DNA of 59,143 bases from Candidatus Omnitrophota bacterium (GCA_016193175.1 JACPSR010000044.1:1-59143), one strand, 5' to 3'; counted from the first letter of the stretch, positions 9,006 to 53,209 are shown. Translations and numbers: made by a program. Notes: a model not told the origin generated them from the letters alone.

Positions 9006-12000
9006 TCACCGATCGTCTCCAGTGTCGCACCAGCAATAGCAGGAGCTAAGCGATCTCCCACCGTCTCGGTATATTCGCTCTCGACGACTCCTTGTAGGAG
9101 TACTTGATCCTCCTCGGCAACACCCTGAGTCCCAGCGTGTCGTCAGAAACTCCCGGGCCATGCGCCGATCAACGAGCGCCATCAACTCCACAGTTCGCTC
9201 AAGAGTCGGTGGCGCGACGACCGGCGGTTGTGCAGCGGCTGGCGGGGCTTCAGGCGCCTGGGCTGGCGCTGGGGGGGGCGTTGGCGAAGCGCCATCCGCT
9301 AAGGAGTTGAGGAGTCGCCAGGCCGCCTGGCGCAGATCCGCCACCTCGGCAGCCAGGCCAGCGTCCTCGGCTTGCGCGTCCAGCCCGATCAAGGCCGCCC
9401 AGACGCTGTCGCGTTGGCTGGCCTCTGGCCCTCCTTCCAAGCGCGCAATCGCTGCGGCATACTCCCGGCGGAGCTTCACCAGCACTCGGGTATGCTCGAA
9501 CAACCGCCAGGCCTCGGCGTGGCGCTGCGCCACGTCCTCATCGTCCTTCAGACCGGAGGAGTCGGCTAGCTTGTCCAGCGTGATCAAGGCCTTCCAGACA
9601 TCCTCAAGCGCCTGGGCGTCCGTCACGTGCTTCAACCTCTCGATCGCCTCGCCATACCCTTCAAGCACCTGGGCGCGGAGAGCGTTGGCCTCATCGAGTG
9701 GTGCTGGCTCTGGCGCTGGTCCGGCGGCAGACGCTGGTGCCGGCGCGGGCGGTCCAGGTGGCGCGGTTTCGCCTGCGACAACCGGCGGTGCTGACGCTGC
9801 TACCTCTGCTGCCCTCGGCGCCTCAGCCCCAGCCTGGACGGCTCCGGCGCCTGGCGCAGGTGCAGGAATCGGTTCAGCAGGAGCGGCTGCCGGTTTCGGC
9901 GTGGCTACGGGCTGGGAAGCTGCGCGATCGCGGTGTCGGACCAAGTAGGTGTAGACGAGCAAGACCGCCAAGGCAAACACCCCAGCCGCCACCGCTGGAT
10001 TCGCCTGGATGGTGTGTGACACGGCATCCAAGGCTTGAGACACGGAATCCCATATCGTTGCATGATGTGGTTCTAGTGGCTGGGCGGGCCCGAAGCCGCC
10101 CGCGAACTCGGGGGAAAGCGACGACGTCATCGCGGCGTCGGCAGGCACGCTCACCGTCTCAGCGCCGGAGAGGCGGATGAGCTGGCCCGGATGGATCAGC
10201 TCAGGATTCGTGATCTCCGGGTTGAGTTTGAGGATCTCTTGGACCTTCGCTTGAATCTCGGCGTTGGCGGGTGTGGCCACGCCTTCCTGCTTGAGCAGAT
10301 CCCGCGCGATGCCCCAGAGGGTATTGGCGCTGCCCCCGCGCCAGGTCTCAACCACCGCGACCAACCCCTTGTACGCGCTGGTCAGGGCCGGCGTCCCGCC
10401 CAACAGTGTCGTGGCCACCTGCGCCGCCTGTCTCAGTTGCTCCGACGTGAGGTTCGTGGCGGCGGTGATGACCTGCGCGTCCGCCAGCGCCACAACCCCA
10501 AGGAGCGCCGCCCCGATGAGCAGCGTCGGAACCACAAACGGCAGGACCGACTTCATCCGCTTAACCCATCCCTTGTCTGTTGCAGGTCCAGGCGGCGGCT
10601 CCTTTGGCTTCTTTCTTGCAGCAACCTGGACTGCTTGAATCCACTGGACAAGTTCCGGAGCGCCAATGGTTTCAGCGGCTCTTACCAGTTCATTGAGCGT
10701 ATCTTCAAGTGCCTGCTGCTCCTTCCGAAGCTCGGGTTCGCTCGTGACATAGCGAATTTGCTTGAGGCCCCATTCCTGAAATTGCCTTCGAATCTCCTCT
10801 TGAATTCTCTGTGAACCAGTCTGGTGATACACTGTCCCCAAGGCGATGAAATCAGGAGCTCTGCGACCGTTGAATGCCGCCGCGACCTTGCTGATCAGGG
10901 CTCCTTCCGTGCGCAACCATTCCTCCCGCCATTCCTTCAGAAAGCCCGAGGCTCGCGCGGCTTGCTCACCTGTGACAGGCAACGGCCTGAAAAGATCCGC
11001 ACGCGCCTCGTCCGCATCCCCACCGGCTCGTTCAACCACGCCCATTAGCTCTTGCCACGTGGCATAGAGCGACCATGCCTCGCCGGCCACACCTGCGTAC
11101 GGAATTCTCCGAATATCCTGAATTCTGCTGGCCACTTCCGTGACGTCGGTGGCGTTCCCAAGGTATTGGAAGACACTTCCCTGGAAGAGGCCTCGCAGCA
11201 CGCCGTGATTTCGCAGGATAGTGCGTGCAAGCGATGCTTGATTCGCCTGCGCGAATTGTCTTGGAAACAGCTTTCCAATCAGCTCGCTGAGTTGCTTGCC
11301 ATCCTTGATCAAGGCCTTCCCAACGCTGACCTGCTCCTTCATGAGTTGGAGCGAATCAATGAAGGTGCGATCGGTCATCTCACCAAGCAACGTGTCGGCC
11401 TTCGAGGAAAATGCGAGGAGTGTCACGACCCTACCTGTTTCTGAGTAGACATAGTAGAGCCGGTGGTCCCCAATTCTAGAGCGGGAGAGCCCTTTCGCTC
11501 TCCCATGCATCCCTTCCTTGCCTATCAGGCTAGGTAGCCTCGAAATCATGGTTCGAAGCTCCTCACGTGCGTCTGGGTATTGATCGACGTTCTCGGAGAA
11601 CCCAGGAGTCACTTGCATGTAGAAACCGCTTGGCCAGTTTGGCGGTTCGATGTGCCAGGGTCGAACATGCCCCTTGCCCCAATTCCCCAACGTCGCGGCG
11701 AGGCCGCCGACGCCGAGCGGGCCAAGAGCCGACCAGGCCGCGGCAGTCCCGAGCGAGCCGAAGTGCAGGGACGAGAGGTTCAGCAGGGACGAGAACCAAC
11801 TGGTCCAGTTGCTGCTCGCCTGGTCCAGGTGCCCGGTGAAGCCGATCGCGTCCCCCTGCAGGCCGACGAGCGCCGCGACGGTCATCAGGCCGGCCATCAT
11901 GCCGATCTTCCACGGAATGCGCGAAGGCGTCGGCGGGGCGGACGGAGTCTCTGCGATGCGCTCCGTCGTCCCCGGGTACGCGCGATCCGCGAGGTCCCGG

Positions 12001-15000
12001 GCTCGGGCGGCAATCGCGCTGGCATCCAACTGAGCTCGTTCCGCCAAGCGCTGCGCGTACAGGTTCTGGAACTGCTGGCGCGTGGCCTGGCTGGCTCGCC
12101 CGGCCAGCGCCCGCATCCTCTCTTTGAACCCCTCGGGTTTGAGGACATCCTCTTGCGCCCTTTGCGCGTCCTTGTCCTTGACCCCGAGCCCAACGGAGTG
12201 CTCGATCCGCCGCAGCTCCGGCCTGGCCGCCTGAACGGCCTCTTGGAAGAAGGTGGCGCCCAAAGCCAGCGCGAGTCCTGAGCCGAACCAGCCCGCCCCC
12301 ATCAGGCTCATGGGCATGACATCAGAACCCGGGAGGCCGGCCCACTGGGCCAGCGCAGAGAGGCCGCCGAGGAGCGCGGAGGTCGTCAGGGTGCTGACCA
12401 GGAGCGTGGGGGCAGAGGCGTCTTTATTGTGCACGGCGAGGCCGTTGGCGAAGTAGGTGGGCGTGGGGGAGGCGGTGAGGTTGTAGACCCGGGTGGGCGC
12501 GCGGATGCGCTCGATACTTATGACAGCCACTGGCACAAGCCCTTCGATCTCAAATGCCAAGGGGCTAGGGGCCAGCAGTGCGGCAGGGTTGACAAGATTC
12601 AGAATTGGTGATACAGTTGTCGCCGTGGAGCCGAGACTGACATCATTCTGGACCAAAGGTAGGCGGAAGGCCCTGTCGAGCACGTTGCTCACGATCTTCC
12701 AAATCCTCCTTGCTGAATGAGGGGAGAGGACCCATGTTATTCGCTGTGGTGACGGTGCTCCTGCTTGCGATGGTTGCGGGGGCGTGGCTCTTGATCGAGG
12801 ACCGCCGGCTCCGGAAACACGCCCACTGACTCCTCTGTCAGTAAAGGCTGCATCCACCATCAGTTCCTGCCCCGCCTGCAGGTCCTTCACCTTCACGAAC
12901 GCACCCTCCGGGGTGAAGATCGGATGCTCCCCGGTCACCTCCACCGTCTGGCCGCTGGCTAAGTGCACCTCGTAGTACGCCCCGACCTCCCTCGTGAGCG
13001 TGCGGACGACCTGGCTTGCCGTCAACTCGCCCGTCTCGGGATCAAACGCCCGCACGCGCTCCCCCACCTGCACCTGCTCAATCGGCTTGCTCGTCCCATC
13101 CGCCAAGGTAATCCGCGTCCCCGCCAGGAAGCACTCGTGTTTGGTGAGGCGTTCGAGTTGCCAGCGAAGTATTCCCAGACGTTCGCTGAGCACCGCCCTG
13201 AAACCGGGTTCGGCTGCGACCAGTTGCTCTTCATCGCGCCTGATCTGGCTCCGTAGCCACACTGGACTATTGAACTGGCGAAGGGTTGGCAGGACGACCT
13301 TCAAGTGACCTGGAACGGTTGCAGCCTTTTGCGCTTGGACTGGCGCAGGCGGCGCGGCGGCGGGGCTACCCAAAAGCGTAAGAAGCGTTTGATAGATGTC
13401 TGGCTTGCGGTCCTTTAGTCGTGGCAGGAGCCGCAGGATCTCTTGAATCTTCGCGGCAGCGGCCGCTCCTTTGTAGAAGTGTTTCCGCTGGCCCTGGATG
13501 CGATCTTGACCCGCCTCAAGCACGCGCCCATCCGACAAGACAGATCGGATAGTCAAACTTTCTGGATCGCCTGAATCTGGGGTGCTTCGGTGGCGTAGTG
13601 TTACCGTGACCACTATGGAAGGCTTTGCTTTCCCACCTGGCCCACCCATCTGCGTCAGCCCGACGGCCAGGGCCAGCGCGCTTGCCAGTCCGCCGAGGCC
13701 CACGCCCCCGACCGCTGCCAGCGTACCCCAGCTCGTGGAACTTCCCGGTGACGCAGCGACCTGGGCGACCTCGGCCACCGCGGCCAGCGCGGGATTGAGA
13801 CCGCTCGTGGCGAATACGAGCCCGCCGAGCGCCAACCCTGCGATCGCGAACTTGCCCCACGGTAGCGAAGCGGCGGAGCGGAGCGCCCGTTCGACGATCT
13901 CTCGCACTCGAGGACGTTCCAGTCTCCGTAGTTCTTGACGCAATCCCTCGATGTCTGATAACCGGCCCACGAGTTCCCTATTGGCAGGATGCTGGTCGGC
14001 CTGGAGCGCCTCAAGCTGCTGTATTCGCTCACGGAGTCGTCGCACCGCAGCCGCCTCCTCGACACTCAGCGTCTTCTCGTCCCGCTCGGATACTGCGGCC
14101 AGCCGCTGGGCCATCTCCTCGGCCAGCCTGAGCCGCCGCAGGGTCGCCTCCAGGACGCCCTCGAACAGCGACGCGGGGGCCGCCGGCTCAACCGCAGGCG
14201 ACACAGGGCGCACGTGGCGCTCCCTCCACCACTGGCGCAGGTCCTGCGCGATCTGGTCGTGGGCAATCTTGCCGTCCGGTGTGAGCCAACTCACTGGTCT
14301 ACCCGTCCACCAGGCGAACAACTTGGCCGCGCTCGCGACCAGCGCCTGTGGCCCCATCGTGAACATGAATTGCGCGCCTCCAGATCCTTCTTGACCACGC
14401 TCCTCCTCTGGCCTCAGGCGCTCGAACACGACAGGGAGTCTTACGCCTCGAACTACTGGTTGACCTTCAGCAAGTTTGAACAACCTAGAATTGATGACGA
14501 CCGCAGACACGACTTCCGATTTGTGCCCGCGCCAAAGCTCTGGGAGCTCCTGGATGTTAACCCGTTCACCGGGGGCAAGTCCGGCTAACGCAGCTTGGGC
14601 CTCCTCGATCTCCTCAACTATCGCCCGCCAGTCAAGATTGAGTCGTCTGATCTGTCCCCGCAATGTAGAGTCGGAAGCCAAGATTCCATAGACCTGGACA
14701 TGATCTCCAAGCGGCCGGAAGAGGTGAGACTGCCGAATCTGTTCTAACTGGTTCACCACAGCATCTCGATCCTCAGCAAGCCCTAGCCGTTCACCTGCCG
14801 CAACACGTTCCATTAGGCGATCAAGAGTTCCAGATCGCTCTTCCCCAGTCACGGAGGTTGTTGTTGGAAAGATGCGACCAGCTGTACGTTGCCCGTGTTC
14901 AAATAGCGCATACTCATCAATGTCCTCAATATCCTCTCCACGACTCGTCCGCACCACAAGCATCCTGGCAACATACGTTGCTTCAAACTCTATTCGAAGG

Positions 15001-18000
15001 AGCTCAACCGCACGCTGGAGGAATTGACGGCGCTCTTCGACGTTCAAAGTTGTGTTCCCTGCGATAAGCCGCTCCACTCCAATGAGATCTTCCTGCATCC
15101 ATTGAAGTTCCCTTGCTCGAAACTGAAAGGCCAAGTAGAACATGTCATCCAGCCTAATGCCAAGGTCATCAATGATCTGAAGCTCGCGCAGCTGGATATA
15201 CTCTGGTAATTCCGGCAGGGTGACGAAATAATCATAGAAACTTTGTGGCGGCACACCGCCGGGGCCGCCGTGTCTCAGATGCGCCAGAGCCAAAGCGCCG
15301 AGGAGCGAGGTGAAGAGGGCGAAGGCGGCGAGCCCCAAGGGGTTGGTGAGGAGGGCGGCGGCGTGCTGCAGGATGGGCGGCGCAAACGAGGCCCCCAGCA
15401 CCGGCGACGCGTGGCTACCCAGTATCTGATTGAGTATGAGCGAGCCCCACCCCATCCATCCCACGCCGCCCAAGAGGAGCAGGGTGTTGCGCAACGTCTC
15501 CCCGCCCTCCTCCGTCGGCTCGGCGGCGGGCGACGCCTGCGGCGGCGTGGACTCCTCAACAACCCGACCGATGACGAGCTTGCGGATAGCGCCAGGAGTC
15601 AGCGGATCTGGGCCGATCTCGCGGTGGAGGATGGCCACATAGCGGCCCTCTGAGTGAGTCGCCTCCTGAAGCATTTCGCTGACCTCAGGGAGGGTGGCTT
15701 GCGTGAGCGCGGTGAGATCTGGCCGGTCAACCACGTCCAGCGGAATCGTATGCCCGGCGTTGATGCGCCGCTCAATCTCTGCTCGCTCTGCCTCGCTGAG
15801 GGGCGGAACGGTGCGGGTGAGGTCTCGCGGTTCCTTTGGGTCGTCAATATCGAGTAACGTCCTAACGAGCTCAAGGTCTTGTTTAATCTTGAGGAACTCT
15901 CCTTGTTTAATCTCGAGGGACTCTTTGGAAGAACCCACAAGACCAGGATCAGGGTGCGCGTCGGCTAGAGCTCTGCGGATAGCTCGCTCCAATTCTCGTA
16001 ACGGAGCATCGGTCGGTACCTTGTAACGGTGTCTTAGCCCGAGCACCCCCGGAGCGCCTTCCAGCCGCTGTCGGAACTGCTCTTCCAATCGCTCGCGTTC
16101 CGCTGGACGCAGCCTCCCTAGCAAGAAATCTCGAACAAACGAGGCAAGATATCCCTGTTCGATCAGCCCATCATGATTCGCCACGAGCGAAGCTAACCGT
16201 CTCATGAGTTCAGGCTGATTCTCACGCAAGGCATGGAAGTGATAGTCGATCAAGGCCTTGGTGTAGCTGCGTTCCTCAAGTGCGTTCCACACTATTGTGT
16301 TGGTTAATTGCTCACGCTTATCTGTTGGCACGCCCTGTTGCTCCAGTCGCCTTGAGATAACCCAAAGGAGGGTATCGAAGCGATGGAGGCCTAATCCATA
16401 TTTCAGACCACCGAGAATCTCATTATCAGAAATCTGTGTGGCGATGCCGATGGCTTCATCGAACGTGTAGCCTGCTCCCTTAAGTATCGTCGAGGCTTTG
16501 TCTCGCACAGAGTCAATGTAGCGCTCGCGGGCACGCTGCTCCTTTGCGACTTCAAGCTCCAGGTCCTCTCGGAGCCATTCAATTTGCTGCAGATGGGGGG
16601 CTTTCATCCCCTGTTCAAAGCTGGGATCACCCTGGAGTTCGTCGTAGAGCGCCTGGATTCCTGCAATCCGGGCTTGGATTGGACGTTGAGCTCCTGCAAC
16701 CCCCCTTGCTTCAGACACGCGCCCTGCCAACTGGGCAAGCTGGTCTTCGGCATGGCTCAGTCTCGAAATGAGGGATTGTCGGTATGCTCCATAGAAGGCT
16801 TCTACGACCGGCTGGTCTGAACTGCCAAGCGCTCCAGCGATGGCACGGTACACTGTCAGAGATAGTCCTCCGGTCCCTGAATGCTGCTGGAGCTCTTCGA
16901 GCGGCCTGATCCCGGCTGGACGCTGACTTATCTGGACAAGCGCATTGACGATACTGTTGATTCTCGGGGCCACGAGCGCTGTCAGTAGGTCGTTTCGATG
17001 AGTCTGATAAAAGGCGTTCACCACAGTTACTTCCTGCGTTCCTAGCGCCTCAGCAATGGTCCAGTAAACCGTATGGGACAACACGGCTCTCTGTGCGGCG
17101 AGCAGCTGCTCGATGGCCCTGGGAGCCATTCGCTCTAGCGCAGAGACGACTTGCTGAACCGGTGTTACCTCTGGCCCAACAATGTTGCCGGTTGGATCAA
17201 CCTCAGGCGATGGTTTGGCCTCCCCACCGCTTGCCCCCTCCGGCTCTTGTTGAAGCGTGATGAAATAGAGGGCGGCTTCCTCCCTGAGCATTTCAAGCGG
17301 GAGTCTGGGAATCGCTATCACTAAACCTGATGAATAACCCTGGGGCGGCTTCTGCGCTGCCGCACGATGCATGGCTTCGGAAATTCCTGGTAATGAACCA
17401 GGTCTCGTTTTTTGAAAGATGCCTGGAAGCCATTCTGTGAGGAGAGTATTTGAACCCTGCGAATGCGATACTGACCACCAGCCCTCCCCGGGATGAAAGA
17501 TCAGCCTTACAACCCGAAACAAGGTGAGCCACGCATAAGGAGTTGCGGCAATCTCAACTAAATAAGGACCCCGCTCATCTTCCTGCTGTGGCATGACTGC
17601 GTGGGTGACTTCGTGAGTGATCGTGGTGTACAGATAGCTTTCAAAGTGTTTATTGAGGAAGCGTTGAGCATCCTCGGTCACCTGTGGCCATTGGTTGGCA
17701 AGAAGCAATTTCAACGTGTCATCCACCACCTCATTACCTGTTCGCTTCTCTTCAGGCAACTCGCCGTGGGTTCTTTCCAGGTGCAGCCGCAGGGCGTAAT
17801 AGCCCATCAAATCCTGGGCAAGGGCCTGCCTGCCAACCAGGATGGGGATCGCCTCATTGATCCGCACCGCTGGAATCGCAGCCGCAACGATTGTCCTCTG
17901 CCCTGAGCGGCTTTCCAGATAATCTGGCACAAGGGTTCTTCCGACAAATACCGCAAGCGCTCGTGTCTCCGTCCCCACAATGTTCGCCATCACAGGGTTG

Positions 18001-21000
18001 GTTTGCTCAACCTCATACACCGCAAGCCAGGGCATGTTGCCAATGGCGCGATGGTTGACGACCGCCGCGTGCGTGCCGAATTGGAGAAATCTTCCTGAGG
18101 CGAGAAACGCCTCTGCGAGCGCCTCCATGACGGTTCGTTGCGAGAATCGGCCCTGACGAAGTTCCGCTGCTAATCGGTCAAAGGCAGGGATACCTTGTCC
18201 AACAGCCGCGATCTCTGCAAACAGCGCCTGATAACGATCCCACACATTCTGCGATAATTCGTTGACTTCGCGTGTGCCCTCAGGGAAAGCGGCGATCTCC
18301 TGATCGATCACGGCGTGAATCTCCTCAGTTCTTGCCCTCAGGAGCTCCTCAACTCTTCTGACGATTTGTGCTTGAACGTCAGCCCCCACTGTAACGCCAG
18401 GGCGCGGAGTGAGACGCTGCTGGAAAAATGTGTCCAGCAGTTCTCGATTGGCAAAGATCATTCGGGCATTGGCGGCCCCAAAGACATCGAGGCCAAGGTC
18501 CTTACTAAGCCAATCATCCACCGACTTACCTGAATTGGTCTGCGCGGCTTTCACCCGTTCATAGGCTGCCTGTATGCCCGGAACGTCTGTGTCCGCAAGT
18601 TCTTTGTCGCGCCCCTGCAAGAGCAGGACAAGAACCCCCCGCACCAGTTGTACATCTTGAATAGGCGCGGGCGGCTCGGCGGCGGTAGACGTAGACGTGT
18701 AATCCCTCACGGGGGTTCGGCCTGGTGTTCGTTCCCGGCGGGAGAGCCGCTGGAGGAGGTCTGGCTGACGCTTACCGTCATGGGCCAACAGGTGCGCCAC
18801 GACCTTAATGAGCCCCTCTTCGACGGTCTGCTGGAGGGAGGCGGTGGCGACGCGCTCCTGTAGCTCCCCTTCGGCGGCCAGGTGTTCCGTGAAGGCTCGT
18901 TCGACGGCAGGATCAACGAGGAGTTCAAGGAGTTTCCGGCGGAGGTACGATTTCTTCGCTTGCTCTTGCTGCCACGCTCGGAAGAGGACTTCGACGGCGA
19001 CGCTGACCGGGTTGGGTTGGCCCATGAACGCGATGAACTCATGGACGAGCCGGGCGGCTTCCTCGGTGGGATCGATCGATGCCTTGGACTTCCAGAACAC
19101 GTGGATGCCACGATCCGAGGCGTGGCCTTTCGGGGGGCCGCGGGCTGGATCGTGGAGCAGCGCGGGGTCCTTGACGGTGATCCGATTGACTTGTGGACGG
19201 ATCTTACGGTCGCCCGGCGTGATCGCGGGGAGTTCCCTTGGCACAAGGCCTGCAAAGATCTGGGAGAAGCCGTCAAGCCCCTTCCAGCCTCGTTGAGGCT
19301 TCCACTCGTCCTCCAGCGCGCGCAGGAAGGCCTGGGCCTCTAGGACCGAGGGGTCTGTGGAAGTGAGCCGATGTTGCTCGATGCGGGAATCCTTTGAGTC
19401 AAAGGCTGGCTTGAGCCAGAACGCGTCGATGGCGGCTTCATGCTGCTCGTACCCGGAGATCCGGAGCTGTCCCTCCCCCACCATCTCGTAGTCCCGCTCC
19501 CCAGCTCCAACCGTCGGCCCGGCGGCGGGCGGCTTGGACGGTTCGGTTCGATGCATCGCGCCAGCGACGGCAGGGACCGTGGGACGGCCGCGCACCGCGG
19601 AGAGCAGCGCATACAGAAAAGCGGAGGCGCTGTAGCCAAGACTGAGGGAGCTGAACAACCACAGGTAGGCGCCCACCCAGAGCAGACCAGGCAGGCTGGG
19701 CGCAACACCGAAGGAAAAGACCCCGCTTAAGACGTACCCCACAGGTAGGGCAGCCAGCCCGAGGATGACGCCGGTGCGAAGCGATTCCCATGGTCGCTGG
19801 TTCAGATCCCCTTCAACGAGCAGGCGCCCCTCGGTAACGAGATCGAACAGCCACACGCGCTGAGCCTCCAGCAGCGTGCGCACAGCCTCCCACCGTTGCT
19901 GGATGATGGACGGAAGGGGTGCTCGCAGGGCTGCAAGGAGACCAACCCGCTCGCGCTCACCGCGCAGGAAGCCTGCGCGCGCTTCTAGCGCCAACGTATG
20001 CGCCTCGTCTTTGCGAAAGCCGCGGCTCCGTAACCTCCACTCCACGACTTCATGGACCACGTCGGCCGCCGCCTCTCGGTCACCGGCCCACGCTTGTGCG
20101 AGGCGCTCCCGGCCCAGCAGGAACTTGCGGTACCCAGTACCTTCAAGGATGAGCGCCGTCAGATCCTTGTTCTTCAGCCACTGCTGAATCCGCTCATCAA
20201 GATCGGCGATGGTGGCGAGGATCACATGCGGCAGGAGCTCCTTCACCTCCGCAGAACTCAGCCCGATTGCCTGAAGCGCCTCGCCGATGCGCTGCCGATC
20301 CTCTTCCGTCATGTCGCGCTGCTGGCGGTCGGCCCATTCGACTATTCCTTCCCCGCTCTTCCCCCGCCTCATCAGCCGATCCAGCAACTTGAATGCGCGC
20401 AAGAGCTGGGCCCCCCGCCGTCCATGATGCATCGCCCCGGTAACCCCAAGCCGGGCTGGTCTCGGCCGAGCTGCATTAGTCGCCACGGGTGCGGCTGGTG
20501 CAGCAGGCTTGGTTGGCGCGGCGGCAGCCGTCTGAGCTTTTTGGTCCAACGACTGGAGTGCTGTGGCGACATGCCTCAGTCTATTCCGTAGGCTGTTGAA
20601 CTGGGCTTGGACGTTGCGAGGCAGTGCCCTGAGAGTATCGGAATCCATCGCGTCCAAGAGGTCGCTCACCTTCTTACGCTCCTCCCATTGGGCATCCAAC
20701 ATCGCCTGGGTGGGTGGTGAGCCTGTCTGCAACGCGCGGAGCCGGGTTTCAATGACGGTGAGCTGCGCCTCTGCCGCTCCGAGAGCAGCGGTCGCTTTAC
20801 CCTCTTCTGGATGGACCGCGGCAGGAGCCACCGCACCGGCAGCAGCACCCGACCCCGGTTGGTGAGGTCGAGGAACAGCAGGCTCGGCTCGCATCTCTTC
20901 GGCTGGACCCCCGGCTTGGCGCCGAGCGCGCTCGTGGGCAACCTCAGCCTTGATCCTCTTGAGTACGTCTATGCCGAGCCTAAACAGGGTGTCCCGAAGG

Positions 21001-36000: not shown

Positions 36001-39000
36001 ATCTGACTCAAAGCCACTCGATTGAGCCCTGCCGTCTGAATCGCTCGTGCCGCCTCGTTCCATGAGCTCGAGGAAGGAGTCCAAGCAGACACCGCAGTTC
36101 CGAGCCATGCCTCGCCATACCCCATGAGCAGGTGGCCCGCTGTTTCACCAGGGCTAACATCACGGACTGACCCTGAGGCGAGATCGTGGACTTTGACGAC
36201 ATAGGTGGTTTGGTTCTGCTGCATCCTTTGCAGGTAACGTTGTCGTTCCGCTCCCTCAGACATCCACGACGGCATACTCATCTCCGGATGATTCTGCATA
36301 TATTCCCGCATTCGCGCATGGAGCGCCCGGTCAGTTGTATCCAACGTATCCAGGCTTGGTTGCTGGCGAATCTCTCTGTAATATTCTTTCCCGTTCATGG
36401 TGACGACGGGGGAGAGGTCTCCGGAACTGAGGTGCGGGTTCAGGGCCGGGTCGAGCTGACCAGTCGCCACATCGAGAAACGCGTTGATGCGGCTGTTGGT
36501 CATGTTCTTGAGGTTACCCACCTTCTCGCCGGGCTCGATGTTCGGAAGCTCCACGTTGACCTCTCCGGGTTTGAAGGCGAGAGCGTTCATGAGATGGCCC
36601 TGCTTGTCGAACATGAGGGCAACCGGGCGGTCGGCGGTTGAGGTATAGTTTCTGTGCGAACCGCCTGGACCTAAGATGACCAGTGGCGCCACACCGGCAG
36701 CGGCAAGCTCAGGGGCAAAGCGCCCTTGGCTGTAGACGATCTCTGGCGCCTTCACGGTGATACTCCCGTCTTCGTTTCTCTTGATGTCGAGTTTGGAGTA
36801 CTGCCAAATATCGACGGGGCTGCTGCCGCCTGGTGTATAGGTAAACGTGAAGGAGGTCTTCTCTCCTGCCACCTGCCCCTCCAGAGTCCCATAGAGCTTG
36901 CCATCCTTGATCGTGAACGATGGATAGAGGGCGCCGCTGACAGCCTGCTGCTGAGCCGTGCCGCTGCCTGAGACATTCGGGTTCTTGTAGAATTCCGAGA
37001 GCGTGATATCGCGGACGGCGATGCCGTTTTTGGTCCGCTCGAGTGTCAGCTTCGCAGGGATCTCGCCGCTTGGCGCCATCGCGGTGTACGCCCGCTGATC
37101 GCGGAGGATCTCGGACACGGGCACGCTCCCGCCATCCCGTACCAGGTTCTTGGCGGGGATGCTGACGTCAACGGTGAAGCGCTCTCCGACCCGACGGCCT
37201 TCGAGCGCCCCCGCGGGGATGAGCGCCGTCAGGTTCAGGGGCGTTGCCTGGGACGCCGTGCGCCCCTCCATCGCTTTCAGAGTCTGAGAACCGATCTTGC
37301 CGTCCGGTGTCACGCCCAGGCGTCTCTGCAGCTCTTTGGCCTCGGCAATATGGGCGGGTTGCGTGTACTCGAAGTATCGAACGCCGCCCTCCTGATAGGT
37401 GATGAGGATGGGCTTCTTGTCGGGTGACCTGTCCGTGTCAGGAAACTTTCCTTCAAAGGGCTCGAGTTGTTCCCCGTTCCGGCGAAAGATCCCGATTTGC
37501 TTGTTTCCATCCATGACCCGAAACTTGTCGCCGGTTTCTCCCATACGCTCGACCGTGTAGTTCCGCCCTCCCATCGTCACGGTGGACGTCGTCCCCGTCC
37601 CCAGGGCGGGGGTCTGGGTCGCCCCGACCACGCGCTCGCCCGGGCTCAGGGAGAGCGGCTGGGTGAAGCCCTGCGGCCCGCGAGCGGTGGCGCTGCCTTC
37701 AATGAGGCGCATCTGTCCGGCATCCACGGTGAACGTCGCGACCGGGGCGGTGGCGGTCAGGGTGAGGGTGCCCCCGGCCTTCAGGGGCAGGTCATGCGTT
37801 TGGCCTTCGGTGAGGAGGAGCCGGGTGGGTTGCCCCCCGGGGCCGAGGAACTGGACGGTGCCCTTGTTATCGTCCAGGAGAGTGATCTGCTGGGTGGCGG
37901 GATCCACCCCCACGTAGCGGCCATCCTGGAGCCGGAAGAGATTCACCCGGATGCTGCCGGAACCGGTCGCGCTGGTCGGATACTCCACCACGTCGGGGGT
38001 CACGGCCCCGGCGGGGGTCACAGCCTCGGCGGTATAGGTCTTGCCGCCGAGGGTCACGGTGTACGTCGTCGTCCCCGTCCCCAGGGCGGGGGTCTGGGTC
38101 GCCCCGACCACGCGCAGGCCTGAACCGCCGGCGACCTGTGCGGCTTGAGGCAGGAGAGATGGCACTTCCCCTGTCCGGGGTGGGAGCCCGGAGCTTAAGT
38201 CATAGCGCCCGTCCTTGGTCATGGGCTGTGTCACATCGCGCACCAAACTTACTTTAGTCCCATCGGTGAGCGTCACTTGATATCCAGCCGGAAATGTCAC
38301 GGTATTCCGGCTGGGATCGATCACCACGCCCGTTGCTCGGTCGACCTGAATACCGTTCTTATCCGCAAAGAAGACTTCTCTTCCAGTGGCGCCATCTCGA
38401 ACCTGGACTCCCGTCCCGTACTTCGGATCAACGACGTTCCAGGTGTAGAAGAGCTCCCGCTCCTCGCCCGTCTTGGGATCCGTGACGTAGCGCCAGCTCG
38501 GACGGCCCGTCTCCAGGTCCCGGCGGCTCGCGTACTGCTCGTAGATCCAGGGCTGACCGGTCTTGTCCGGGGCGACGAGGTCGACAGTCCCGTCGGGCTT
38601 TTCCTCGATCTTGAGAAGACGTTCGTTGCCCTTGGCATCGGTACGGTAGACCCCGCTCAGGCGCAGGCCGTTGCCATCGAGGGTGAGGAGGCGCTCACCC
38701 ACGCGGTTCTCGCCTGGCTTGAGGGCGTGGAGCTGCTGGACCTCGCCGCCTGGCTCCCCGGGGGTCGGGAGGCGTTCGTAGAGCCCGGTGACCTGCAGCT
38801 TGTTGTCGTCGAGCGTGTAGACCAGATCCCCGACGCGGGTGGGGCCGTCACCTTTACGGATGAGCTGGCCATCGACGTAGATCCCGCTCAGGCGCAGGCC
38901 CTTGGCATCGAGGGTGAGGAGGCGCTCACCCACGCGGTTCTCGCCTGGCTTGAGGGCGTGGAGCTGCTGGACCTCGCCGCTCTCTTCCCCGGGCGTGGGG

Positions 39001-42000
39001 AGGCGCTCGTAGAGCCCGGTAAGGGTCAGTTTCTCAGTCTTCGGATCAAAGTGGTAGCTCCAATCACCGATGCGGTTGTTGTCGCCGGCCCGCAGATAGT
39101 GAACGCTGTCGTCATTCAGCGTCACTCGAAAGGTGCCAGGCCGATCCGGAACTTCTTCGATCTTCTTCGCTTGCCGACCATCTTGCAGCGCACTTCCCCT
39201 CGTTGTGGTGACGGCTGGAGGTTCGTTGCCGACGGCTCTGGCGGCGGACGGCAGGTCGGCCAGACCGCCTCTCCCAGCCTCTCCGGGAAATGGAGCAGGG
39301 CCTGGGTATCGAGGAGCGCCGATGGGATCAGGAAGGAGCGGTTGTGGAAAGGCGACTACGTGCTGCGAGATTTCGGAGGATTCAAGCAAGGGGTCAAGCC
39401 TGGGAAGGAGCGTGGGGCTGCCCAGGGTGTCGGCAAACGTTGGGGGCGATCGAAGATCGGTCAGATTGTCCAAGAGTGACGGGAGCTGTCCGAAGCCTGG
39501 GGACGAGAGCGACCAGAAGGGCTCGCCCAGTTCCGGCCTGAGAGGAGGAGCTCCTGGAGGGCTTTCCACACCCAGCGTCGCCGGCCCTGTTGGCGTGACG
39601 CTGCCTTCGAACAGCTTGACCCGCTCCTCAACCGGCGGGTGGGTGCCAAACGCGCTGACGCCGTGAGGAAAGAGCCCTTCGAGCTTGCCCGTCTCCCTGA
39701 AGAAACGCGCAAAGTCCTCCATTGCCGCTGTCGCGTCGGGCTGGAGCTCCAGCGCCCGCTTGGCGAACAGGTCCGCACCCGTCTCACCGAGGCGGCTGAG
39801 GGCCGGCCCCACGAGTTGAAGCCCAAGCGATCGGGCAAGATGCTCGCCGGCCGGAAGGTTCAGGCCATTCAGGTGGTCCTCATAGAGGCCGAGGGCGAAT
39901 GTCCGGTAGGCCCAGAGGCCAGCCGGATCGGTATGGCCGAGGGCAAGGTGGCCAAGCTCATGCGCCAGGACGCCTCTGACTCGCTCAAGGGCTACCGTGT
40001 TGATGCCGCCAGCGGCATCCAGCGCTCCCTCGTAGAGCACGATGACCTTCTGGCCGTTGATCTGGGTCGCAAAAGCATTCGAGAGGCTGCCAGGGATGAT
40101 CAGCACCTTGACATCCTTCACCGCCTCACGTTCCACCTTGCCTTGCGCGACCATCTGCTCAGCCATTTCATGGACCATCTCCTCGGCCTTAAGGCTCAGC
40201 GGCATCCCCCAGATCACGGGATGCACGAGTTTGTCCTCAGGCCTGAACCCGGCCTCCTGCTTGAACGTGCTCAGGAACCGCGAGGTATCCAGCGGGGAGG
40301 AGAGCTGTTTTTCCATCCCCGGGTCTTTCCACGTCAGCTCCGATCCCTTAGGGGTGATCGTGCTGAACATGTAACTGCTGCCGTCTTTCGCCAGGAACCC
40401 GCTCGTCTCGCGATCGCGCCCTGAAGCGCTGAAGAGGAAAAACTCTCCGCGAGCGATCAGCTCGTTGGCGATCCTGATGCGCTCCTTGCCGGCATCCGTG
40501 AGCTGGAAGGGTTCGTACCACACCGATCGCTCACCCGTCAACTCATCAACCCCTTCAACTCTCCGTGGTGGAGCAGCCTGCTCGATCGTGCGGATGGCCG
40601 CGTCCGGCGTCATCGACGCCTCGAATGCCACCTGAACCCTGCTGATTCTGGTGTCGTCGCCCCCCACGCCCATGGCCTGCACGTGGCTCAGGACCGTCTG
40701 ATAGGTCGGATCGGCGGGCTTCATCGGGATCACGTCAATCTGCCCTTTTCCGCCAGGGTGTCCCATGCCCAAGAAATTCGCCTGGAACTCACCGACCAAT
40801 GACGTGGTGCCGAACGCGTACTTTCCAGCCAGCAGCGCATTGAGATCGGCGTTCCGATTGATGATCGTGGGGAAGGTCTCAGAAAATGGGGAGACCTCTC
40901 GCGCGGCGATCGCCGTGCCATCCCGCGCCAGGCCCACCACGGTCCCTGACGGATTCTGGAGATCCAACAGCAAGCCGTCCGTGCGCACCGTGATCCCCAT
41001 GGGCATCGTCCCGGCGTACCGAGCCACCACCCGCCCCATCGCTTCCGCCTCCTTTTCGATCTCACGCTTGGCCACCCGCGGCACGTGCTCAAGCTCAAGC
41101 TGCATCGTCCCGCGCGTGGTGAGGCCCTCCACGTATTGGGCTGCGATCGTCTGGGTAAACTGCCCGGGAAACTGCCCGGCGAACTTCACGCGGCCCAGGC
41201 TATCAAGCCCGACCAGCCGATGCGAGAGGCGATCTTTGCCTGTTTCCAGCTCTGCCTTCCCTGGCGTGCGACTTAAGGCCAAGGTTTCGGTATAGCCGCT
41301 CAATAGCTGTTGCTGGGTTTCGCGGACCCACTTCAGCGTATCGTCAACGCGTTGCGCAAGCAGCTCAGGCTTGCCTGCGTCGATGACTTCCTTGAAGGAA
41401 GGCGCCCCGGTTCGACTGGCGAGCTCTTCCAGCTCCTTGATGTTCTCTTCCTTCAGCTTCGTGCGGAAATGCTCAGAGAGCGCCTCCCGCCCCTCGAGGG
41501 CAGCCTCACGGACCCCCTCCAGGAGCTTGATCTCCTTGTCCGTCAGGCTGTGAACCGTCACGTCTCCAAGAAAGCGGCTCAGCACGAGCGCCCCTCCATC
41601 GAGGGTGTTGGACCGAAACCCATACAGGTTCGACATGTCATGGAGCGGCGACTGATTCGCGACGCCGAGCGCGCTCAGGAAGGCATCCTTGTGCTTGGCA
41701 AACGCGACGGGATCATCGATCAGGCGCTGGACGAATCCACTGGGAAACGGAAACTGCATCGCGACATCCATGAGCGGCTCAGGCTTCGGCAGAAGAGGAG
41801 GAGCAGCCGAAAGCCCATGGAGCTCTCCCCGTCGTTCTTCTTGGCCGAACGAAACGTCAGGGCTCGTGACTCGCTCGGCTGCCGGTGTCAGGCCGGCTCG
41901 CCCGGTGGGCGTCTTGAGCTGCCAGAACGGGGTGATCGAAAGCGCATCCAGAGGGCTGACCCCGATGTGCGACCGCACGATCCAGCCTTCATCGCCGAGT

Positions 42001-45000
42001 CTGGTCCTACGGAAGGGGTCGTCCCTACGGAAGGGGTCGTCCGCAAGGCTGGTCACCTTGATGACCCCGAAGTTGTCGCTGCGAAACGCTGGATCACGAT
42101 AGTAGTCTGCCAGGTCGCGATAGAAGCCTCCGCGGATTGCACCGATCTGCTCTCTTAACTGGCCGGCCACCTCACCCGTGCCCAGTTTGCCGAGGTACCA
42201 GCCGAACGACCGGATGTCGGACCTTGCCTGGGGCTGAAAGATCCCGATGAATCGATCAGGCAGGGGCTGTTGGAGGTCATAGATCCGCCACTCCTTTCGA
42301 TCCTCAACGCTTGGAAGCTCCAGAACCACATAGCGGTCCTTGTCCTGCCCAGCCGTCTCGCGCGTGACGCCCCAGGAGGCGGTCCCGGGGATGGCTCCCC
42401 GCAGGATGGCCTGTTGGTGCGCCTTGTACAGCGCAACGTCGTCGACCTGGCTGAATTCCACCGGACCTTTGTAGTCGCCAAGCGTGTTGAGGTGCCGGGC
42501 CAGGGTGAGCTCGTTCATCTGCGCGAGATGCTGGCCAAGCTCGGCAAACCGTTTGAGCTGTTCGGGCGTCGCGTCTTCCTTGATATAGGCATCTGGGGAG
42601 ATGCCCAGGAGGTGTGTCGACGTTGGCGCCGAGCCGACCGCGGCGGCGAAGTTCTCGTAGTCCTCGTCCGGGAGCTGGTTGACGTAGTTCCTGAAGACCT
42701 CGGCATACACCAGAGACCGCCCGTACTCTTCGCGAGAGAAGCCCAGGAGAACTTTTGGCGTCGGCGTTGAGCCGATCGCGGCGGCGAGGTTCTCGTAGTC
42801 CTCGTACGGCATGTGGTTGATGGCCCTCGCGGAGAGCTCGTCATACGATGGGGTCTTCCGCTGGAACGCCGGATCCATCACCACGCTGCGGCCCACCTCT
42901 GCGAAGCGGTTGGACTCCACAATGGGGATATTGCCGCTGAGCGGATCAAACACCGTGCCCTGAACCGGCAAGCCGGACTTCCTATCAAACGGCACGCGGA
43001 CGTCAAGATACCTGCTGCCAGTCTTCACCACGTCGCGAAACCGAGGTCCGGTATATGAGGTGTCGTTGTCGAGCATGGCCAGCGTCGGGAGCACCTCGGT
43101 GTTCAGGAAGCGGTCCAAGCCCTCACCAGCCCCTCCCCCGCTTGCCAAGGTCTTGAGGTATTGTTCGGTCATGGTGAGGCTTCCCTGGAGCATGGCCACA
43201 TCGATGCCTGGTTGGACACGTTCCTTCTCGAGATAGCTCTGGTAGTCGACAAGGGCGCCGAGGGTGTTCAGCGAGTCGGTGGAGACGAGCCGGCTGCGCT
43301 CACCCACGAGGCCGGCAATGAACGTCGGCGCCAGCGCTGCGTTGATGAGGTTTCTGCTCGCGATCTCCGAGGCAGACTGGGAGTAGAACTCGTAGAGCCC
43401 TCTGCCTGGACGTGGCGAGAAGACGCCCTTGCTCGGATCGATGGCAGACAGCACAAGCCCCCGTTCGCTCTGCCCAAACAGATACGCGTACTCGGCAAGG
43501 TCCGAGTTGGTGCGATTTCTCATGCTCGCCTCGGTGGCACGATAGCCGGCGCCGAGGGTCCCATACGCGGCCTCCAGCAACGACTGAGGCACCATCCCAA
43601 AGGAACCCTGGAGCAGCCCCGAAACGGTGCGCTCCCCGCCTCCAAACATCTGGTGGGAGAGTCCTCTGGCCAACGCGCTGAGGGCCAGCGTCCCCCAGGG
43701 GCTGTCAAACCCGTGGTTCAAGCGGCTGAGGTGTCGGAGGCCGAGGAGTGCCGCGCTCTCAACCAACGTTTTGGGTCCGGTCGCCTTCAGTTGGTCCCAG
43801 TAATACGAGCCAAAGTCCCGATGGATTTTCGGAACATCCATGATGACCCGGTTGTTTTGCAAGACGCTCAGGCTCCAGCCGTCGTCGTTCTTGGAGTAGA
43901 TCGTGGTCTTGCCGTATCGATCGGTCGTCCGAACGTGCGTCAGTTGGCCGTCGCGAAGGAGGTACTGCGCGCCACCGAGGTCCGAGGTGAAGACGCTGGT
44001 TGGGAGTGCGGCTCGTCGCTCCTCGATGTCCAGCTTGCTGCGGTCCGTCGGTTGGAGGATCCCCTGCTGAATGATCCGGTTCCCCCTGAGAAAGGTCCAC
44101 CGATTGAGCCCATCGCCAAGCGGCTGCTCCGACAGCGTCACCCCACCTGAGAGCGGCCGATCAAGCCCCATGAGTTGATTGTTGAGGTCGTAGTACGCCC
44201 GTTCCCCGGTCGGCGTTGTCAGGAGTTGCGTGGCTGGGTACGCGGACGGGTCGAACTGGACATCGCTCAGGTCGATTCGAGATAGGTTGCCGATGAACCT
44301 GTCGTTCTGGATGACCGACACGGCGTCGCCCATCGCCGAGGGGAAGCGCACCAGCGTGCCGTCCTTGAACGGCTGCTCGATGTGGCTGATTCCTCCATCA
44401 GCCGAGAAGTAGGTCTTGGTGCCGGCCGCGTCGGTGAGCATGGACTGGGGCAGGCGCACCACATCAAACGGATCTGTCAGGCTCTGATCGAGCGCCTGGA
44501 GCTGACTCCCAGCAAAAGGATCTACGAAGCGTTCAATGTCCCCGTCCCCACCGCCAAGCGACTGCGGAAATAGGGTGGAGGGGGTTTTGAGCGCCTCATC
44601 CCACGGCAGTCTCATCGGCACCGTGGGCCCCCGATCCACGGCAAGCCAATTGATGGCTAGTTCAACGAGCCTCGTCCCAACGTGCGCAAGCGCGCCGGCG
44701 TATTCCGGCCCGAGGTGCTTCGAGGTGAGATCGGCGATCTCGATGCGGATCGCCTGCCTGGCAAACTCATCCCAGTTGCGGCTGAAGGCGCCCAAGCCCC
44801 CCTCTCCGAAGTTCTCGAGGCTTTTGAACGGTTCAGGAGCGGTGGAGGGTGCGAAGCTTTCCGGAAAAGGAAAAGATCCACCCACCAGAGGTCTTGGAGC
44901 AAACATATTGGTGAGCCCGCTCATGGCCACATACCCTGAGGTAAAGCCGACAAGCGAAGCCAGCCCCCGATCCACGCCGCTTTCCACCAGTTCGTTGGTC

Positions 45001-46421: not shown

Positions 46422-46481
46422 CGTCGGGTCCGGCGTAATCGTGAGGGTGGGAGCAATTGTGATCGGCTCGACAGCAGCCGG

Positions 46482-46560
46482 CTCGACGGTTCGACGGTTC
46501 GACGGTTCGACAGGTGACCTCGTCTGTCCTACTGCTGTCGAGCTGTCGAGCTGTCGAGCG
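46482..46560. repeat. Hairpin built from octanucleotide tandem repeats: (ggttcgac) x3-4, a loop, then (ctgtcgag) x3.
   Basis: gctcgacggttcgacggttcgacggttcgacag-gtgacctcgtctgtcctact-gctgtcgagctgtcgagctgtcgagc. The arms pair with G:U wobbles when read as plus-strand RNA. It lies where two minus-strand frames are simultaneously open. Confidence 0.8.
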
Positions 46561-46574
46561 GATAGGTTCCGGCT

Positions 46575-46893
46575 GGCGGAGTCGCCACCGGGACTCCGGG
46601 GATTGAACGAGGCGTTCGATCACGTGGGCGAGCTGGGGGGAGCGTTTCAGGAACTCGAGCGCCTCGTTGAGCTCTTGCTCCGTCGGGGCGCGGCCGTAGA
46701 GGTCGTCATACATCGTCAGGATTGCGCCCCGGTGTTGCAGCTCAAGCTGGCGCTGCAGCTCGCTTGAGAGCTGCAAGGCCTGGAGGGCGTTGGCGTCGGC
46801 GCCCCAGACCGCCTGCTCCGCGGCGAAGAGGGTCGCGAGTGCGACGCAGAAGGCTTTTGTGCGTTTAAGTGCCAACCACCGATCGATCCGCAT
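46575..46893 (-). CDS. Signal-peptide/TM anchor plus DUF4214-like segment, the probable true 5' end of the giant gene. It is out of frame with ORF-1 as assembled.
   Basis: ATG 46893 lies 4 nt after the tadC stop (aagTAGaggcATG). The N-terminus is MRIDRWLALKRTKAFCVALATLFAAEQAVWG, followed by MYDDLYGRAPTEQELNEALEFLKRSPQLAHVIERLVQSPES (DUF4214-like). Track ORF 46180..46893 turns junk-like after about 46570. Confidence 0.6.
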
Positions 46894-48696: not shown

Positions 48697-48869
48697 TGCC
48701 CGTTGACCACGGTCACCCCGTGCTCATACTGCCGGCCATAGCCAAAAGCGTCGGCCACCATCCGCCATCTGCCGGCAAGCGCCCGTTGGGTATACACCGA
48801 CATCGCCACCAGCATCGCGACGGCCACCGCGATCAGGACCGCGTATTCGATCGCACTCTGACCCTGCAT
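48693..48869 (-). CDS. Flp-like pilin paralog (58 aa).
   Basis: MQGQSAIEYAVLIAVAVAMLVAMSVYTQRALAGRW... carries the G-x-x-x-x-E-Y prepilin motif plus a hydrophobic helix. The N-terminal 72 codons of track ORF 48693..49085 run through a repeat element and were trimmed. Confidence 0.7.
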   Translation of the reverse strand: MQGQSAIEYAVLIAVAVAMLVAMSVYTQRALAGRWRMVADAFGYGRQYEHGVTVVNGQ

Positions 48870-48880
48870 CCGCGGAGGAC

Positions 48881-48950
48881 GCTTCAGGCTACAGGCCACA
48901 GGCTGCAGGCTTGAGCTCGGAGCTTGCAGCTTGCAGCTTGCCGCTTGCCG
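48881..48950. repeat. Heptamer-tract hairpin: (gctNcag) x5 followed by (agcttgc) x4.
   Basis: gcttcaggctacaggccacaggctgcaggcttgagctcggagcttgcagcttgcagcttgccgcttgccg fills the intergenic gap between 48956 and 48869. Confidence 0.7.
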
Positions 48951-48955
48951 TTGGA

Positions 48956-49402: not shown

Positions 49403-49407
49403 CTCAC

Positions 49408-51624: not shown

Positions 51625-51668
51625 GGATCACTCAAGGCCCGAGTTGAAGGTTGCTCGTTTCATATCGA

Positions 51669-53207: not shown

Positions 53208-53209
53208 CG

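Follow-up and report, generated by a model that had tools for sequence, protein, structure and literature searches.

The 59,143-nucleotide (nt) stretch of DNA analyzed here, contig JACPSR010000044.1 of a Candidatus Omnitrophota bacterium (GCA_016193175.1) and referred to throughout as the window, contains an open reading frame (ORF) of 12,471 codons on the minus strand (9006-46421), ORF-1. ORF-1 probably represents most of a gene of about 16,000 codons that encodes a giant membrane protein of the Omnitrophota, is the last gene of a Tad/type II-like pilus operon, and has a product that would act on cell walls together with the pilus. All coordinates are those of the window, all features lie on the minus strand unless otherwise stated, and residue numbers are those of ORF-1. 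The G+C content at the first, second, and third codon positions (GC1, GC2, and GC3) is 0.63-0.73, 0.44-0.52, and 0.57-0.77 in every 3-kb slice of ORF-1, and this coding-type pattern throughout means that its entire length is coding in its frame, which bears out the ORF, of 12,471 amino acids (aa), at the positions given in a first-pass annotation of the window.

The giant gene as a whole occupies positions 2-46893 of the window, where it is read in three frames, from 46893 to about 46572, from 46421 to 9006 (ORF-1), and from 9142 to 2, open for 131, 12,471, and 3,047 codons, respectively. Two sibling contigs, JACPJH010000090.1 (L070) and JACPTW010000026.1 (L069), are 99.8-100% identical to the window and between them keep one frame across both breaks. 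Compared with L070 the window has lost 83 nt at 46572/46573, the missing codons encoding LNPERVKSRKAEAGRIAQAVSRVVGQFL, which is conserved in relatives, and this deletion gives rise to the apparent GTG start at 46421. Compared with L069 it has lost 50 nt at 9135/9136, encoding TIEELKATRASLLELI, and this second deletion accounts for the stop that appears at 9006. By this comparison the two ends of ORF-1 are artefacts, created by out-of-frame deletions in the window copy; the GTG at 46421 is not the true start of the giant gene, which begins with the ATG at 46893. The match of P0001, a protein encoded on L069, follows the ORF-1 frame down to 9135 and the other frame over 9136-4382. In L069 the true stop is reached 1016 nt past the left edge of the window, and the restored gene (46893 + 83 + 50 + 1016 = 48,042 nt) is an exact multiple of three, with 16,014 codons and a product of about 16,013 aa. 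The siblings carry differences of their own, L069 an N-run at 12082-12120, because of which NCBI split the gene there, and L070 the absence of 136 nt inside the giant gene (window 44117-44251) and of 123 nt inside the TadG-like gene (49423-49545). Such indels among near-identical assemblies reflect either repeated local assembly errors or genuine structural variants within the population. Phase variation of octanucleotide repeats was considered as the cause of the 5' frame break and rejected. The two tandem repeats on the coding strand, (TCGAACCG)x4.1 at 46479-46511 and (TCGACAGC)x3.2 at 46534-46559, lie just downstream of the 83-nt deletion that constitutes the break, and both read identically, with the same copy numbers, in L070.

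The true N terminus, MRIDRWLALKRTKAFCVALATLFAAEQAVWG/AD (MRIDRW...AVWG/AD, 46501-46893), comprises a signal-peptide-like or signal-anchor segment and a conserved domain of about 130 aa, which is 59-66% identical to the starts of giant ORFs in loci L001-L004, L035, L036, and L049 and is in frame with the C39 domain in relatives and in L070. The peptidase C39-like domain (45495-46379; PF03412, 36 bits against a cut-off of 22) is matched over residues 222-309 together with the catalytic Cys at residue 27 and is split by a low-complexity insert, the Cys lying in SNCAPNALAPML (46314-46349) and the His in ADHYVVV (45606-45626). The domain is conserved in relatives, the first ~500 residues of ORF-1 being 37-74% identical to giant frames in seven loci. 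A predicted C39 peptidase lies close to a signal-peptide-like start in the window gene, the arrangement expected of the known Omnitrophota giants.

Upstream of the giant gene, profile matches delineate a Tad/type IVc-like (type II-like) pilus operon (46898-59080). It encodes a CpaF/TadA ATPase (57311-59080; T2SSE, 2e-63), a DUF192 protein (56896-57522), small Flp, class III signal, and TadE-like proteins (51669-56053), a TadG-like protein of 738 aa (49408-51624), and two T2SSF platform proteins, TadB-like (47815-48696) and TadC-like (46898-47866). The TadC-like gene stops at 46898, and the ATG of the giant gene follows 5 nt on at 46893, the giant gene being the last of the operon. A phage structural module with a tape-measure protein, for which the packed small genes and Gly/Ala-rich clusters had been considered, was rejected, the neighbors being Tad genes. 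The closest relatives of the TadC-like gene are found in metagenome-assembled genomes (MAGs) of Omnitrophota, some of them labeled Planctomycetales, followed by Myxococcota. A giant open frame lies downstream on the same strand in at least 12 Omnitrophota loci, running off the fetched DNA, and none of at least 1,200 codons starts on the same strand downstream of the TadC homologue in the Myxococcota loci (L041-L067). P0001 and P0002, from NCBI "Candidatus Omnitrophica" MAGs (GCA_016192565.1 and GCA_016187645.1), match parts of the ORF with 100% identity. By these affiliations the giant gene is that of an uncultured Omnitrophota bacterium.

Proteins of this class have been described. Omnitrophota giants are reported to have numerous transmembrane (TM) regions and an N-terminal C39 domain near signal peptides, most of them also carrying divergent SecA_DEAD and SecA preprotein-binding domains suggested to serve self-export, and their genes to be preceded by a conserved type II/IV-like secretion locus and followed by PilZ genes (West-Roberts et al. 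2023, bioRxiv 10.1101/2023.11.21.568195). PP2C, LysM, and Hint domains are unmentioned in that preprint. The N-terminal peptidase of class members is C39 (or S8), and sugar-uptake genes have also been reported downstream. A catalogue of 916 proteins of at least 10,000 aa finds TM helices or a signal peptide in 94% and singletons among 80% of sequence clusters; its clusters of domain architecture are largest for C39 and SecA_DEAD, and 13 of 14 giants are flanked by Tad or type II loci (Nielsen & Lui 2026, bioRxiv 10.64898/2026.06.07.730766). Giant ORFs and their poor conservation were noted by Seymour et al., including the 39,678-aa protein of V. archaeovorus (PMC10066038). The remark in the first-pass annotation that no single polypeptide with such a combination was known is contradicted by the two preprints, and a built-in SecA for self-export had been proposed for the class before that annotation was made.

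Hydrophobic clusters recur along the chain. The 12 cluster positions given in the first-pass annotation all hold uncharged hydrophobic runs, with a 19-residue Kyte-Doolittle (KD) maximum of 1.63-2.79 in 10 of the 12, 1.49 at 11660-11920, and a weak 1.03 at 44950-45300. The count of KD windows of at least 1.6 is 13, with 17 expected from composition shuffles, and shows no excess, a consequence of the high Ala, Leu, Val, and Gly content of the protein. ORF-1 has 13 uncharged runs of at least 20 aa whose KD core reaches at least 1.5, compared with 3.5 in shuffles (maximum 11 in 200), and the longest uncharged run is 79 aa compared with a shuffle mean of 33 and a maximum of 52; this excess of uncharged runs indicates that the clusters are real. 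Cluster 1 (35514-35972) has four uncharged segments with 2-4 possible TM helices, cluster 2 (27171-27341) is a 57-aa uncharged run that probably forms a helical hairpin, and runs of 61 and 71 uncharged residues are found at 19593-19775 and 15276-15488. A hydrophobic hairpin (residues 10858-10930; 13632-13850) is followed by two clusters assigned by hydropathy between 11676 and 12419 (12243-12419 and 11676-11822). The continuation frame has at least six more clusters, including a TM segment at 8522-8587 and, within 203-4306, clusters at 4154-4306, 3887-4024, 3389-3451, 2753-2926, and 203-274.

The topology was read from hydropathy and from the number of Lys plus Arg residues (K+R) in the 20 residues on either side of the hydrophobic runs, following the positive-inside rule. 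At four single helices K+R is 6 before and 2 after residues 6732-6757 (in to out), 0 before and 7 after residues 6881-6912 (out to in), 6 before and 1 after residues 11958-11980, and 0 before and 4 after residues 12133-12161, a bias that places both LysM domains in outside loops and the PP2C domain and RelE-like segment inside. With a K+R of 5 before and 4 after, the hairpin of residues 10858-10930 begins and ends inside, and the Hint domain is accordingly placed inside as well. An outside position of the SLT domain, after a further TM segment, fits the positive-inside counts. Given the signal-peptide-like N terminus, the C39 domain, the M48 domain, and the peptidoglycan-binding-like repeat would start outside, and the P-loop module would then be inside only if cluster 1 has an odd number of helices. 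The repeated threading through the membrane suggested in the first-pass annotation is supported wherever it can be judged, with LysM and SLT outside and PP2C inside by charge bias, and repeated crossing of the membrane by the polypeptide is very probable, the predicted envelope-type modules lying outside and the cytoplasm-type modules inside.

Modules were sought with Pfam, NCBIfam, and PDB sequences and with 83 overlapping 300-aa tiles of the protein, the tile scan returning the same families as the searches with whole pieces and nothing else of note. The C39, Hint, and SLT domains had not been noticed in the first-pass annotation; its M48 domain, PP2C domain, and two LysM domains were all recovered. 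The catalytic motifs are intact in C39, M48, PP2C, Hint, and SLT. Among the modules directed at the cell wall, LysM1 (25941-26090; 24.8 bits against a cut-off of 20.9 when the region is searched alone) occupies a predicted outside loop between TM segments at 26151-26228 and 25686-25781 (25686-26228 in all). LysM2 (approximately 10170-10328, matched on four overlapping tiles) lies in the same way between TM segments at 10482-10550 and 9939-10025 (9939-10550). The two belong to a duplicated module composed of LysM, TM segment, Pro-rich linker, and helical region (residues 6740-7100 and 11970-12400; approximately 25194-26204 and 9200-10510 in the window), whose copies are ~40% identical over ~400 aa and which is the sole repeat in an otherwise non-repetitive chain; self-BLASTP of ORF-1 at E ≤ 1e-3 returned no internal repeats. 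The SLT lytic transglycosylase domain (7355-7693) lies in the continuation frame, preceded by the TM segment at 8522-8587, and scores 66.5 bits in Pfam against a cut-off of 21.3 (2e-18) with its E-S and GLMQ motifs. The peptidase M48 domain (39615-40184, residues 2080-2269) scores 44.1 bits against a cut-off of 20.3, has HELGH at 39948-39962, and has as its best NCBIfam match the periplasmic LoiP type (1.7e-8, compared with 1.4e-4 for HtpX). The peptidoglycan-binding repeat of the first-pass annotation (37245-37331) is seen as a profile match and stays below the Pfam thresholds (PG_binding_3, 21.3 bits against 24.6; PG_binding_1, 18.5 against 23).

On the inner side, the PP2C Ser/Thr phosphatase domain (23850-24506), predicted to be cytoplasmic, is matched by PF13672 (43.6 bits, 3e-11), NCBIfam Stp1 (4.7e-42), and the PDB chains of PstP/PppA (1e-20), with the metal-binding motifs DGMGGH, GDSR, SDG, and DD intact. 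TPR repeats (27768-28061, residues 6121-6218) match HOP/STIP1 in the PDB (2.6e-6) and TPR_2 on tiles (3e-7). A Hint or bacterial intein-like (BIL) domain (12426-13145, residues 11093-11332) is recognized by Pfam Hint (39 bits), Intein_splicing (36 bits), and PT-HINT (31.6 bits, cut-off 27.7) and matches the BIL domain of PDB entry 2lwy at 8e-8. It has Cys1 (ECFLAGT), TGEH as its TxxH motif, and a terminal HN followed by Lys; with Lys at the +1 position and no +1 nucleophile, the domain is predicted to cleave rather than splice.

Taken together, the product begins with a signal peptide or anchor and the C39 domain and continues as a long, mostly unannotatable, non-repetitive chain with many predicted passes through the inner membrane. 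Its outside loops carry modules for binding and cutting peptidoglycan, namely the two LysM domains and SLT, probably also the LoiP-type M48 domain and the peptidoglycan-binding-like repeat. The inside loops carry modules for regulation or processing, namely PP2C, TPR, and the Hint/BIL autoprotease, together with a P-loop NTPase that would lie there and possibly a RelE/ParE-like fold. The chain is presumed to be inserted co-translationally by the ordinary Sec/YidC machinery and may be cut into pieces by its own C39, M48, and Hint modules. The protein may act at the cell surface in concert with the neighboring Tad-like pilus, binding and opening the cell wall of a host or prey, as the literature proposes for the class. 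A Tad-like pilus, Kil, mediates contact killing in Myxococcus xanthus (PMC8460266, PMC12075869), and the target wall could be either that of a host or prey, following the literature and the Kil analogy, or the producer's own.

Several observations weigh against this reading. Approximately 85-90% of the chain is without a detectable family, and its middle is without any homologue. The suggested role in predation is drawn from the literature and the domain content. A SecA_DEAD domain, which most members of the class are reported to contain, has no Pfam match in this protein. The PilZ genes described downstream of most members are not seen; in L069 the true stop is followed by a gene of at least 651 aa, truncated at the end of the contig, for which neither PilZ nor any other Pfam match is on record. 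How many helices the Gly/Ala-rich clusters contain is ambiguous, and the side of the P-loop, J-like, and M48 modules is accordingly not fixed. The window copy, broken by two out-of-frame deletions, could be inactive, or the assembly could be wrong.

An unlikely alternative, which keeps the wall-directed modules but dispenses with prey, is that the protein is a housekeeping envelope scaffold that opens or holds the producer's own peptidoglycan for assembly of the Tad-like pilus or anchors a coat. SLT and LysM usually accompany trans-envelope machines, for which the wall must be opened locally, the gene stands at the end of a pilus operon, PP2C and TPR suggest regulation from inside, and an extracellular "coat" has been proposed for the V. 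archaeovorus giant (PMC10066038). However, the transglycosylases dedicated to secretion systems are small, 16,000 residues are left unexplained, and a fast-evolving, mostly singleton class fits changing interaction partners better.

The presence of the Hint domain raises the possibility, slightly less probable again, of an effector polyprotein akin to the polymorphic toxins, from which Hint, C39, and M48 would release pieces, including a RelE/ParE-like nuclease, to be delivered via or alongside the pilus. The PT-HINT match above its cut-off, with its motifs intact and no +1 nucleophile, is in keeping with this, as is contact-dependent killing by Tad-like pili in Myxococcus, yet BIL-type Hint domains are found in non-toxin proteins too, and no immunity gene is evident. 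The RelE/ParE-like segment (IGDHRLYYVY...VVTLLAFSSKAD, 11397-11642) lies 260 aa downstream of Hint but is not C-terminal, ~4,300 residues following it, and lies between hydrophobic clusters on the predicted cytoplasmic side. Its match to ParE_toxin covers the C-terminal half of the profile and stays below threshold (14 bits, E = 0.077; cut-off 23 bits), and a PDB sequence search with the segment at E ≤ 10 gave nothing relevant. The segment was modeled together with the J-like and GrpE-like segments discussed below as one artificial concatenation (predicted local distance difference test score (pLDDT) 49 overall). In the model its alpha-alpha-beta-beta-beta order fits the fold at a pLDDT of 36-51, and RelE1 (9g12_B) appears at rank 22 of a Foldseek search with E = 0.44. 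The RelE/ParE-like fold named in the first-pass annotation is a possible candidate, with a fitting order of secondary structure in a low-confidence model and a profile match below threshold. A weak match to TIGR02574, "putative addiction module component" (15750-15818, residues 10202-10224; E 0.0017-0.022, below cut-off), could be added on the side of an effector; it is located just after the J-like segment, with the RelE/ParE-like segment ~1,400 residues further on, and is perhaps a coincidence.

A third proposal, which originates in the first-pass annotation and is very unlikely, is that the giant is equipped for its own export and folding, with a SecA-type motor that translocates its outside loops and J- and GrpE-like modules that recruit and recycle DnaK. 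Its center is the stretch described as SecA-like (31119-32822), which lies in a long TM-free region that could be cytoplasmic. A genuine Walker A motif, GPTGSGKTT, is found at 32763-32789 (residues 4545-4553; expected 0.002 times by chance) and shares the GxxGxGKT type with SecA. It is followed ~93 aa later by a Walker-B-like hydrophobic strand, LDFAILQDVHE (32478-32510), of the form hhhhQD, a spacing like that of superfamily 2 (SF2) helicases and SecA, although the acidic pair is QD where SecA has DE. Between the two, LLLTHERWVAEDTA (32670-32711) resembles VVTVNDYLAQRDA of SecA, the motif-Ia-like LTHERWVAEDTA corresponding to VTVNDYLAQRDA. Alignment with E. coli SecA from Walker A to Walker B is colinear (z = 4.7, mostly from the P-loop), placing LLLTHERWVAEDTA on VVTVNDYLAQRDA and LDFAILQDVHE on LHYALVDEVDS. 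With the P-loop masked, the alignment to nucleotide-binding domain 1 of SecA falls to z = 2.3, with 32 of 1000 shuffles equally good.

Beyond these motifs no similarity to SecA was recovered. Matches in Pfam and NCBIfam at E ≤ 10 are to generic P-loop families only (T2SSE, 0.0012-0.004; DEAD, 0.007-0.03, over motifs I-Ia; ComGA, ABC, and others). SecA_DEAD (PF07517) and SecA_PP_bind (PF01043) gave no match when whole pieces, the region by itself (E ≤ 10), or the 83 tiles were searched, nor did the NCBIfam SecA models or PDB sequences at E ≤ 10. Searching E. coli SecA with phmmer --max against the giant protein and 1,512 background ORFs gave nothing in either direction, nor did tblastn of SecA against 67 related loci. 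Residues 4931-5110, the putative second RecA-like domain, align with SecA residues 401-620 no better than shuffles (z = 0.08), without signal for motifs V/VI or the arginine finger, and the preprotein-binding insert and scaffold/wing domains are likewise undetectable. No homologues that could support residue conservation were found by a word-indexed search of 5.8 billion proteins (residues 4450-5250), by exhaustive phmmer against 1.84 billion representatives at E ≤ 0.001 (residues 4400-5400), or among genome contigs. An AlphaFold2 single-sequence model of the region has a mean pLDDT of 34, too low to use. By its motifs, 31119-32822 is a genuine NTPase module of the P-loop type, possibly degenerate and not assigned to a family. 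The SecA-like ATPase of the first-pass annotation is retained as to its Walker A and degenerate Walker-B-like motifs, its SecA identity being a lead that none of the searches supports. The module may be an extremely diverged counterpart of the SecA_DEAD domain reported, with SecA_PP_bind and a proposed role in self-export, in most Omnitrophota giants.

The co-chaperone segments fare less well. The J-like segment (15850-16035) is modeled as a helix, an HPD loop (15942-15959), and a helix at a pLDDT of 57-78, but a single HPD in ORF-1 is at chance level (0.73 expected). The GrpE-like segment (22650-23230) is modeled as an N-terminal helical bundle (pLDDT 70-82) followed by an unmodeled tail. DnaJ (PF00226) and GrpE (PF01025) are unmatched at E ≤ 10 in Pfam, NCBIfam, and PDB sequences. 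A Foldseek search of the concatenated model against the PDB gave nothing at E ≤ 0.001, its top matches being copper-storage proteins and bromodomains at E ≥ 0.14, and no J-domain or GrpE is among the top 50. Neither segment can be upheld as the first-pass annotation described it. The translocation and folding helpers it envisaged were made to depend on profile and structure searches, and these recover no SecA_DEAD, DnaJ, or GrpE. That the P-loop, helix-HPD-helix, and GrpE-like segments are what is left of a SecA-type motor and Hsp70 co-chaperones, too far diverged to be recognized, is highly improbable; if true, it would mean that a giant membrane protein drives and chaperones the export of its own outside loops.

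That the gene is broken or mis-assembled, a decaying pseudogene or an assembly chimera whose modules are not made as one chain, is suggested by the two out-of-frame deletions in the window and by the indels (123 and 136 nt) and N-run of the sibling assemblies, but is highly improbable given that all three frames are open over their 131, 12,471, and 3,047 codons with coding GC1/GC2/GC3, that the assemblies agree to 99.8-100% in the flanks of each indel and every break has an uninterrupted counterpart in another assembly, and that the restored length is an exact multiple of three with catalytic motifs intact.

The G+C content falls to 0.55-0.57 at 30001-34000 and 16001-18000, compared with 0.60-0.66 in the other 2-kb segments. 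The first of these stretches holds the P-loop module and the second a further HExxH motif (THEVTH, 17601-17615) with no family match, which hints at a mosaic origin of the modules. Heptanucleotide tandem repeats with differing units are present in coding sequence at 45782-45810, 46199-46229, 48881-48948, 57085-57156, and 57363-57394, most tracts being ~31 nt (4.4 copies) and sited in the Tad operon and the 5' linker of the giant gene, where they encode linkers such as GSGLRAQGSG. Tandem Repeats Finder found none in the remainder of the giant gene in the window. Heptanucleotide repeats also occur in loci L002-L005, L035, L036, L049, and L017. Across the 67 loci and the window period 7 equals period 12 in frequency (54 tracts each), far above periods 4, 5, 8, 10, and 11. 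No evidence of phase variation was seen, the copy numbers being the same in the window and L070. Plus-strand ORFs of up to 489 aa (for example 25305-26774) run antisense within the giant gene (window 9160-45800) and are shadows expected by chance from a coding strand of 62% G+C. Ten ORFs tested at 289-8694, nine on the plus strand and one on the minus strand, have no family match, and there are no tRNA genes in the window.

The Omnitrophota giants are among the longest known polypeptides and are almost entirely uncharacterized. A comparatively short copy with recognizable, motif-intact modules and a coherent in/out charge pattern offers a workable case for the open questions about such chains, namely how they are inserted into the membrane, whether they are cut into pieces, and what they do beside a Tad-like pilus. 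Nothing categorically new is involved, as a combination of alternating modules, many TM helices, an N-terminal C39 domain, a SecA-like domain, and an upstream secretion locus has been published before.

Comparison with known systems illustrates where the protein is typical and where it departs. With the BIL/pretoxin-HINT domains (2lwy) the Hint domain shares the signature of Cys1, TxxH, and terminal HN, a host that is a large, variable, surface-associated protein, and the absence of a +1 nucleophile, as in those BILs that cleave rather than splice. It differs in being placed mid-chain in a multi-pass protein of 16,000 aa, with thousands of residues after it and no short C-terminal toxin. The Kil pilus of M. 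xanthus has the same CpaF-type ATPase, TadB/TadC platform, and TadE/TadG-like and Flp-like pilins, and the relatives of TadC next after Omnitrophota are from Myxococcota; the Kil system, in contrast, has no giant protein, and killing by the Omnitrophota locus, known here from its genes, is hypothetical. The closest resemblance is to the Omnitrophota giants themselves. Both belong to the same phylum, exceed 10,000 residues, have numerous TM helices (roughly 2% of residues) and a C39 domain at the N terminus beside a signal peptide, contain few annotated domains in a sequence that is mostly unique, carry modules directed at the cell wall, and are encoded directly downstream of a type II/Tad-like secretion-pilus locus. 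The window protein is shorter than the "Archaeovorin" and "Dockerin-type" proteins of more than 30,000 aa and does not contain glycosyl transferases, dockerins, or TSP3 repeats; in place of Pfam-detectable SecA_DEAD/SecA_PP_bind it has an unassignable P-loop, and no PilZ gene was seen downstream. With its PP2C, LysM, Hint/BIL, and SLT domains, its RelE/ParE-like stretch, and a G+C content of 62%, it is a smaller, high-G+C member of the described class.

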